A stretch of 62,041 bases of DNA, filler included, from Dugesia japonica (taxonomy: Eukaryota), in assembly GCA_001938525.1 (NCBI GenBank). It is 5 parts of 5 records of this genome, joined end to end, with 100 filler letters (N's around TTAATTAATTAA, not from the genome) between each part and the next. Parts side by side here need not be neighbours in the genome. Positions count along the whole stretch, not along the records: positions 15,925 to 28,426 come from MQRL01619568.1; 4 more parts are not named here. One strand, given 5' to 3'. Shown piece after piece: positions 16,055-18,631 of the stretch. The translations under genes and the position numbers were made by a program. Positions within the stretch are counted from its first letter, which is position 1. Each line of letters starts with the position of its first letter. The notes beneath the pieces were generated by a model, which saw only the letters and a list, made by a program, of their open reading frames with translations, was not told where the DNA came from and did not search any database.

Positions 16055-18631
16055 CTAAAATATTTCGGTATACGTTATTCCACAAGATTTTTTTTTAGCC
16101 TCATGCTCCGCTCGAACTCGTCGTTTGAGATCCTCGAAGTCGTATTGTCTGCGAATTCGTTGCAATTCATCATTTGGATAATAAATTAATTCTCGCTTTT
16201 CTGCGTCGTAACTTGAATCCCATAGCTGCTTCCATGCTTCACTATTTCTCGGTTCTCCCGTTTCCGGATCGGTAATGTCGCTCCTCATCACTCCGATATT
16301 CGTTTAATTTATCTTCTTTCCTATATTGTCTTTCATCGTCACTTTGATATTTACTAAATTGTTTGTTATTCTCACACTGTTGTACTCCCATTTGTGGGTA
16401 ACCATAGCAATCAATTTCACTTCTGCCCTCCTGCTCATAGATATTATCTTTCGCGATATTTCCATCGGATGGTTGATTCCGATAATTTATTTTGAATACT
16501 TTCCGGTGCTTTCCATATCCGTAACTCGGTGCCACCCCTCATCTTTGTCGTTTACTATAAGAATCATCATCACTGTCGTCACTACTGCTATCTTGTCGTT
16601 TCCATGGTTTAAATAAATCAAAATAGGATGTCTTCCTTGCTTTTCGCTTTCTCATGTCATCACATATTGCACGAGTTTGTTCAACTATCTGCCTATCGCT
16701 TCCACCCACTTGACTTAGATATCGCAATAACCTCCTGGTATTATGCAAATCATTTGAATGACTATTTAGTACTGTTTGGCCCACGCTGGGAACAATCCTA
16801 TGATCATTGTCCATGACATTTTTCTTTCCTTTTTGTATCGAAACACGCTAATAATTGAATCAGTAATACTTTAATTACTTGTACTATAAAGATTATTTCC
16901 AATAATTTTATCATTGCTTGTCCGAAAACTTTAAATCGACCCCACATCTTCTTCATTACATTTGCTGTTGCTTGTTAAAAGTGATTTGGTGATAATAACA
17001 ATTCATAATTCGGTCTCCCCTCTGACGTAAATGCTCCTACAGCGACGTACACAATGTTAGATAAGATTTGCATTCGCTTGACCGGAAATAACATGTGTTC
17101 TCTGGCCTTCTCAAGATCCTCCAATTTGTAGATACCACCTTCTGCTACATTAAATGGATTAAAAGTCCATCCCATCCCAGTCAGTTTTAATGCTGAAAAA
17201 TTTCTCACGAAGGTATCCGCAGGTAGTCTCTCCGGAAAACGTATCCATTTATTGTTAGCCATTTTAAAATAAGCTCTAAATAAATTAGAACAGTTCAGTT
17301 TATTTGGTACGAATCCTTTTGGTAATATTACTCTTGTAATAGGTTGTACATATCTTTTCTCTCCCATGTAATCGATTTCCATCTCTTTATAGCAGGTTTT
17401 CTCTCTCGATAAAATTGCTTCTACTCTCCTACATCGATAAATGAACATAACTTCGCCAACAATACGCCCAAATTGACCTTCTTCTAATGGTAAAAATGGT
17501 GTTACATTGTCGGGGTTTGTTATCGCTGTTGCTAATTTTGTCCGTAATATTTCGCGATTTAACAAACAGTCATTATAGATCAGATCATGATACATTCGCT
17601 CCATAAATTGCTGCGCTAGTTGGAACCGAGTGTCCACCTTATTATTCAGATATAAATATAACTTAGCATCTTGAGGCATAACTCCATCTCTCGCCTTTTC
17701 CAATCTCCGCTTTGATACAAAGATTCTATTATAATTTGTTTTATATGCAATTTCTCCACATTTGGCTTCGGATTTCTTACGGATTAATCTAATCATATCA
17801 TTTGCATCGGTTGCCATTAATACGGTTGGTGTATCAGATCACAATATTGCTTCCTCCTTTGTTTTCATTTCCACGTTTAATTTTCCGACGGTTGGCATTC
17901 TGTCCTCTTTAACTGAGTCAACAATTTTCTTTCCTCGATACTCATCGAACAAAACCTCTCTAAGAAATGACATGGTACATTCCTGATGATTGACTTGATA
18001 TACCAAAGTTGATTCTCCAGTATTACACGAATTATCTGAGGCTAAACACATTGAATACATCTTCATCTTTTTGGTCGTTGTATCAAATAAGGCATCAAAT
18101 TGTTTTAGTTCTGCCCTTTAACTTTCTATGGCCACCACTCCAGTTGCATAGCCTAAAGGGCTAGTGTATTTTCCTTGTACGCAAGTTCCCGTTGCATCCG
18201 AAATTGATCCTGCTGCGAATAAACGGATTTGTACAATTTGACCTCTTTTGGCATTAATTATCTTTCCTCGCCTACTGGTATTTTACCAGTTGCAAATCCA
18301 GCTTTGCATTGTTGTCTTGTGAGAAGAACGGGTATTACTTCCATACCTGGGGATATGACTGTCGAATAACTACTTCCTCCACACCAATATACGAATACTT
18401 GCATTGTTATTTTACATTCCCTCATCTTTGTCTTGTAATAATCTGACTCTTGGTACACAAAATAACTCATGAACTTTTGTACTACTTCCAACCTTTCTGG
18501 ATTTGCTTCTGGACATTCTTCTGCATTGATTTATGAATACACCGTTTCCAGGATATCCATATGATCACAATCATTGCTGCACTTCGGCCCATTAAAAACA
18601 TTAATATTAACACCATGAACATGGATTGCAT
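16055..18631 (-). pseudogene. env: Chuvirus/jingchuvirus-like class III envelope glycoprotein (env), disrupted by stops and frameshifts
   Basis: Signal peptide MQSMFMVLILMFLMGRSAA from 18631; xDC...INAEEC; ECKITMQVFVYWCGGSSY; AGSISDATGTCVQGKYTSPLG; CL...CNTGE; GEVMFIYRCRRVE...CYKEMEI...YVQPITRVIL; GGIYKLEDLEKAREHMLFP; KMWGRFKVFGQ followed by a hydrophobic TM at ~16840-16920. These occur in the order expected for chuvirus G proteins. It joins ORFs 18258-18491, 17839-18066, 16975-17817, 16539-16814, 16242-16535 and 16055-16291. Confidence 0.8.

Follow-up and report, generated by a model that had tools for sequence, protein, structure and literature searches.

A very probable dead, 3′-truncated copy of a Burro-type giant Ty3/Gypsy retrotransposon with a gB-type env

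Giant Gypsy elements of flatworms and the locus in the window

Dugesiid planarians carry giant LTR retrotransposons of the Gypsy group known as Burro, or GYPSM1 (PMC6431247, citing Grohme 2018 and Jurka 2007). In the 2019 description given there, a single ORF of about 4,900-5,100 aa comprises retrotrans_gag, two to three CCHC knuckles, Smc, MATH, Ubi2/SUMO-like and BCL2 domains, an in-frame env and a protease (PR); the env matches mononegavirus fusion glycoproteins from arthropods and fish and was likened to the gypsy Env, and decaying Burro fragments with stops and frameshifts are described in one species. An anti-apoptotic role of Burro1 (Lee et al. 2026) is cited in PMC13465017. The eLife survey (PMC13524379) describes the order GAG-ENV-POL in flatworm, nematode and bryozoan elements and lists six gB-env elements of this order in Schmidtea mediterranea, with 1-215 intact copies; it also reports that the chuvirus-like glycoprotein known from BEL/Pao elements of mosquitoes is found beside gypsy pol as well, and argues for an ancient acquisition. 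Capture of a chuvirus glycoprotein (G) by BEL/Pao elements, which the first-pass annotation of this DNA took as established, is indeed published for mosquitoes (PMC10084718). The same account reports gypsy fragments beside such glycoproteins without clear capture, a view overtaken by PMC13524379, and lists a single Jingchuvirales genome whose host is a flatworm.

The window, that is, the whole stretch of 62,041 nucleotides analysed here, carries between 16 and 27 kb a segment with a GC content of 37%, against 23% and 26% in its flanks. The best explanation of this locus, which we consider very probable, is that it represents a dead, 3′-truncated copy of a Burro-type giant Ty3/Gypsy LTR retrotransposon with a gB-type env. 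Since elements of the Burro type are known and ordinary in flatworms, the locus does not point to a fresh capture from a virus. The window is interrupted by joiners (N..TTAATTAATTAA..N) at 15825-15924, 28427-28526, 38762-38861 and 52286-52385 and contains 41 N runs, several with duplicated flanks; neighbours across these artificial joiners and N runs need therefore not be linked. The contig piece of the element measures 12.5 kb; its end at 15925 comes some 280 codons past the transmembrane anchor (TM) of G and ahead of any protease. Its features are:

24820..27000, minus strand: upstream non-coding part, a 5′ leader and perhaps LTR (GC about 35-40%; family contigs in all bins)
24090..24617, minus strand: Gag capsid domain of the Ty3/Gypsy type (Pfam PF03732, Retrotrans_gag, E 1.4e-9)
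23693..23854, minus strand: three zinc knuckles (zf-CCHC, PF00098, E 1.1e-17 over three stretches; E 2.2e-15 in a separate Pfam scan)
23261..23659, minus strand: Q/E/K-rich probable coiled coil, presumably at the position of the Burro Smc (weak Pfam matches: AAA_23 E 0.034, Golgin_A5 E 0.55)
22037..23257, minus strand: region without known family containing an internally duplicated unit (blastp), with an N gap at 22284-22333
20430..20726, minus strand: possible ubiquitin/SUMO-like domain, a lead only (Atlas feature matches of 0.80-0.84, below the 0.9 reliability line)
18713..19210, minus strand: putative helical domain of Bcl-2-like type, sharing its frame with the signal peptide of env (profile of relatives)
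18587..18631, minus strand: internal signal sequence of env (Kyte-Doolittle 2.74 over 12 residues)
16897..18586, minus strand: ectodomain of a gB/chuvirus-type fusion glycoprotein, presumably of class III, with two frameshifts and four stops (PF24664)
16840..16896, minus strand: env transmembrane anchor (Kyte-Doolittle 2.59 over 19 residues)
15960..16839, minus strand: post-env coding tract without known domain, up to the end of the contig piece (ORF and Pfam scans)

Organization and decay of the coding tract

One tract holds the capsid, the three knuckles, the coiled coil and the possible SUMO-like domain, then the Bcl-2-like domain and, behind it, the signal peptide, G and the TM. This succession agrees with the one published for planarian Burro elements in 2019 (PMC6431247). 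Between 24.6 and 16.06 kb, eleven frame runs contain 16 stops in 2,793 codons, whereas shifting the frames gives 231 and 246, these counts being biased in that the runs were picked as open stretches. We read the tract from the capsid to the post-env part as a single giant ORF in decay, some 2,800 codons long, and the copy in the window itself makes no protein. Neither protease nor RT is reached in the ORF and Pfam scans of the roughly 280 codons between the TM and the end of the contig piece. A search of the window for further copies of 24900-28400, as expected of an LTR pair, found none, and the search for a primer binding site (PBS) gave one unconvincing PBS-like match. As pol, LTR pair and PBS are missing in this copy, its assignment to Gypsy rests on the Gag and on the relatives. 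In the Pfam scans of 25 ORFs and 14 stretches of the window no MATH, BIR or ankyrin domain was found, nor any remnant of the N or L genes of Jingchuvirales.

The PF03732 match and the CX2CX4HX4C knuckles bear out the earlier reading of the capsid as Gypsy-like rather than BEL/Pao-like. The claim that all knuckles are canonical holds for two of the three (23854 and 23797), while the third (23734) lacks the last Cys in this copy. Downstream of the coiled coil, the unit at 23257-22967 recurs at 22460-22037 on the same minus strand (blastp, 41% identity over 41 aa, E 5e-8; 35% over 77 aa). The Atlas matches of the candidate SUMO-like domain are Rad60-SLD and ubiquitin clusters, and Pfam and PDB sequence searches gave no support for this region near 20.6 kb. 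By eye, a second ubiquitin-like stretch can be seen at 21078-21365 (minus strand), with no Pfam match.

The minus strand from 18631 to 16807 is a real membrane glycoprotein gene, spread over three frames. When stops are written as X, the main G frame matches Pfam PF24664 (Monjiviricetes_fusion) with E 4.2e-54 and 184 bits, against a curated cut-off of 27. This match spans positions 134-574 of the 653 in the profile; that of the N-terminal piece spans 26-122 (E 8.7e-11, 41 bits). The match to this family is far beyond chance, and the conjunction that had been pointed out, of a fusion glycoprotein of the chuvirus family with a Gypsy-type Gag, is supported by the PF24664 and PF03732 matches. The order of cysteines and motifs described for chuvirus G from signal peptide to TM was recovered in full on the minus strand, with DC at 18572, ECP at 18518, CKI at 18416, YWCG at 18389, GTC..G.Y..P.G at 18189, GEV.FIYRC..VE at 17457, CY.E..I at 17394, GIY..EDLEK.REH.LFP at 17136 and K.WG.F..FG at 16950. 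Frameshifts lie near 18.59-18.60 kb and near 18.27 kb, internal in-frame stops at 18533-18531, 18120-18118, 17841-17839 and 16977-16975, and a further stop, at 16806-16804, follows the TM. The class III fold of G is predicted on the basis of PMC13524379. A search of PDB sequences with G returned a single chance match (E 0.84), and a scan of viral contigs with the main G ORF returned no pattern match.

Contrary to what a free-standing env gene would show, the signal peptide of G shares its frame with an upstream ORF of 350 codons, one stop (18682-18680) lying between the two; G is thus part of the longer tract, a point that the first-pass annotation missed. The hydrophobic stretch of the signal occupies 18622-18587 and has the same place in relatives P0004, P0011 and P0021. 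The upstream ORF ends in a helical domain that we regard, with moderate confidence, as Bcl-2-like. Directly before the signal sequence, a helical domain is found in four distant relatives (P0004, P0008, P0011 and P0021). A profile of four relatives ranked the upstream ORF first among 918 window segments, at E 0.03 with the runner-up at E 0.04. The joint profile A1, with five members, matched Bcl-xL in the PDB (E 0.0014), 59 of the 60 matches among those listed being of the Bcl-2 family; the Pfam Bcl-2 family itself was matched by three of the five members (best E 2.5e-5), the domain of the window going unmatched. The signal helix lies 30-60 residues past a BH2-like motif in P0011 and P0021, and about 40 in the window copy. 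Folds of the region were weak (pLDDT 37 from the single sequence and 59 from five rows). Foldseek with the five-row model gave no match at E<=0.001, and 40 of the 45 matches listed were of the Bcl-2 family with a TM score of about 0.2, a count to be read with the over-representation of this family in the PDB in mind. The VIA wide search with the fold model gave generic helical bundles only, without Bcl-2 among the 50 matches listed; the window region by itself had no match in PDB sequences and no usable one in Atlas, and BLASTP of the upstream ORF against P0004 was not significant (E 1.3).

The element is a multi-copy family. In the DNA runs, 13,579 and 9,196 contigs of mixed identity fall on 15926-26860 and occupy 30 of 30 bins, contig depth in these runs not being equivalent to copy number. 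In RNA run X21, 233 of 13.6 million reads fell on the element, none of them 99% alike and 157 under 90%, and run X20 gave 3 reads; there is accordingly no sign of transcription of the window copy and a weak one for its relatives.

Elsewhere in the window, 29053-34900 (minus strand) holds the middle part of a host cytoplasmic dynein 1 heavy chain in large exons. In a quick tree of 32 rows, comprising one named flatworm and no named cnidarian, this dynein, which lies on the contig piece neighbouring that of the element, forms a group (SH-aLRT 98) together with Paragonimus and three rows lacking a name. Hydra, weighed as an alternative host, was set aside on this tree. The host is likely a flatworm, and a freshwater planarian is most likely, judging by the element and by AT-richness, a planarian trait (PMC11410931). 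An exon at 40402-40674 (plus strand) runs from Gly-X-Y repeats into an apparent fibrillar collagen C-propeptide (by eye), an ORF piece at 46865-47266 (minus strand) resembles a remnant of a Polinton/Maverick-type DNA polymerase B (by eye; no Pfam match), and a 16-bp tandem repeat array at 35802-35959 adjoins an (ATT)n microsatellite. Decayed gypsy gag/pol remnants of other families, in which no env was seen, are located at 48465-49550 (plus), 53917-55436 (minus) and 56393-58999 (plus). Such gypsy pol pieces were considered as the missing pol and rejected; they are 23-44% identical to the RT of the relatives, which are 49-82% identical among themselves, and lie on other contig pieces.

Relatives of the glycoprotein and alternative origins

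A phmmer search with the longest open piece of G gave 651 matches at E<=0.001. Fifteen of them, at E<=1e-30, are 35-56% identical to it, nine being polyproteins with a protease after G and the remaining six shorter pieces. Nineteen matches, chosen as the best and the longest, and two cluster members were scanned against Pfam. An aspartyl protease follows G in the same chain in 12 of the 19; gypsy-type RT and RNase H (RH) accompany G in 6 of the 21, five of which also contain an integrase (IN) while one ends at RNase H. The closest relatives of G are Gag-G-PR-RT-RH-IN polyproteins that continue in frame into pol. The capsid and G of the window are both matched within the single chains P0006 and P0014, to whose Gag the capsid is 28-31% identical; the middle 4.5 kb, from the knuckles to G, matched none of the relatives compared. 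DUF1759 and Peptidase_A17, which we take to be Pfam markers of BEL/Pao Gag and Pol, were absent from the results for the window ORFs and for the 21 relatives, which speaks against placing the element with the G-bearing BEL/Pao elements. Among the relatives, P0155 (4844 aa) contains in one chain G, seven protease-like stretches, ankyrin repeats, a C2H2 finger, RT-RH-IN and 1,500 further residues. P0013, another G-PR-RT-RH-IN polyprotein, is filed under a bacterial metagenome-assembled genome and is probably mis-binned animal DNA.

The truncation could be read differently, as the natural end of a non-autonomous family that consists of Gag, accessory domains and env only and is moved by the Burro Pol in trans. 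Such a family would fit the protease-free 280 codons after the TM, given that several relatives reach the protease 20-300 residues after G, and the composition, which becomes AT-rich shortly ahead of the joiner at 15825-15924. Against it, the contig piece ends at 15925, the family contigs still cover the last bin, 22 and 26 of them extending past the ends of the stretch, as many as about 300 residues separate G from PR in P0008 and P0012, and Burro has further domains between env and the pol side, the region where the contig piece ends (PMC6431247). We therefore regard a pol-less family as improbable.

A second alternative, that of the first-pass annotation, holds that a Gypsy element captured the G of a chuvirus (Jingchuvirales) independently and fairly recently, and that the locus records a chuvirus infection of this lineage. 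The PF24664 match speaks in its favour, as do the G proteins of named chuviruses among the 651 phmmer matches, the published mosquito BEL/Pao case and the flatworm-hosted Jingchuvirales genome (PMC10084718). Phylogeny argues otherwise. From 155 blastp matches, of which 117 cover at least 330 residues, 116 entered a FastTree and 50, picked by hand, an IQ-TREE analysis. In the latter, G of the window lies inside a clade of 18 rows (98/93) made of retroelement polyproteins and similar pieces, whereas the four named chuviruses (Hubei chuvirus-like virus 1, Wenling fish chu-like virus, Guangdong red-banded snake chuvirus-like virus and Sanxia atyid shrimp virus 4) all fall in a separate clade of 27 rows (100/99), the tree being unrooted. 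These four were among 20 stand-alone matches that were looked up, together with one beetle gene and 15 without informative name. G is 22-26% identical to the named chuviruses, compared with 35-56% to the retroelement polyproteins, and forcing it into the 27-row clade was rejected (p-AU 0.000113, under LG+G4 without a mixture model, on an unrooted tree and with the group named after the tree had been seen). In the six RT-bearing relatives, RT identities of 82, 77, 67 and 54% follow the branching order of the G tree, which points to a long joint inheritance of env and pol. Moreover, gypsy elements with such an env are already published, for planarian Burro (PMC6431247) and across animals, including the six of Schmidtea (PMC13524379). 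These results support neither the independent capture nor the infection record, and a recent capture is very improbable; G may still descend from an ancient viral donor, with which the unrooted tree is compatible.

That a chuvirus-derived endogenous viral element merely lies by chance near an unrelated Gag remnant, as the 4.5 kb of unassigned sequence between knuckles and G and the LTR fragments that often flank such elements (PMC10084718) might suggest, is hardly credible in view of the single strand, the distinct GC content, the near-continuous coding tract and the repeat coverage of all bins, and is refuted because the single proteins P0006 and P0014 hold both capsid and G.

Proposed mechanism and comparison with known systems

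For a Burro-type element with a gB-type env we propose the following mechanism, in which fusion, infectivity and control of apoptosis are part of the proposal. Intact relatives would produce one giant polyprotein, whose internal signal sequence would thread G into the ER lumen and whose TM would return the chain, so that the polyprotein would cross the ER membrane twice, with Gag and the accessory domains remaining cytosolic ahead of the membrane passage and PR-Pol behind it. The parts would then be freed by signal peptidase together with the element's own protease. Trimers of G on budding enveloped particles would fuse these with neighbouring stem or germ cells, and the Bcl-2-like domain, which the signal helix would keep at the membrane, may dampen apoptosis. 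An ancestral env would have been acquired long ago by an ancestor of the retroelement clade and inherited with pol from then on. A bolder extension, which we consider rather unlikely, is that Bcl-2-like domain, signal and G form an old fixed module in which the signal helix may serve also as the tail anchor of the Bcl-2-like domain and so link the making of env to the control of apoptosis; as G and RT diverge in step and the clade lies outside the chuviruses sampled, the elements could then be a still infectious, apoptosis-damping retrovirus-like lineage that reaches beyond dugesiids, with a G sister to, or the source of, that of Jingchuvirales.

The single locus, one dead copy of a described type of element, matters little by itself. 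What it contributes is a further family of the Burro type, a link from the 2019 remark on the Burro env (PMC6431247) to PF24664 and to the gB-type class of the eLife survey (PMC13524379), and a view of the junction between the Bcl-2-like domain and env in four distant relatives. It is also a warning: where an invertebrate genome yields a match to a 'chuvirus glycoprotein', this can be the env of a retroelement, and it is not to be taken as a record of chuvirus infection.

Likened to Burro by its published description (PMC6431247), the element has in common with it retrotrans_gag with two to three knuckles, a probable coiled coil, a putative Bcl-2-like domain and an env in frame between BCL2 and the pol side, as well as the likely flatworm host and the many copies. 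Burro elements exceed 30 kb and have long LTRs, features that here, like pol, would lie past the end of the 12.5-kb contig piece. It differs in that MATH, BIR, ankyrin, dUTPase, pol and LTRs are not seen in the truncated window copy, although ankyrin, a Burro feature, is present in the relative P0155. With Smed_errantivirus_1-6, of the HSV/gB type and cysteine type C1a (PMC13524379), it shares the env family and the order of the parts, but the window copy is broken. Over an ungapped stretch of 107 residues, its G is identical to that of Smed_errantivirus_5 at 52 positions and to that of Smed_errantivirus_6 at 46 (hand count); as roughly every second residue differs from the nearest Schmidtea env, the element would represent a different family, or a relative from a different species. 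With the G of Chuviridae/Jingchuvirales it has PF24664 and the motif order in common, while it belongs to a separate clade and is a domain of a polyprotein, chuvirus G being a stand-alone RNA-virus gene product of about 650 aa. Anakin, the mosquito BEL/Pao element (Dezordi 2020), is likewise an LTR element with a chuvirus-type G; compared by description, its backbone is BEL/Pao, whereas the Gag described here and the Pol of its relatives are of the Gypsy type.
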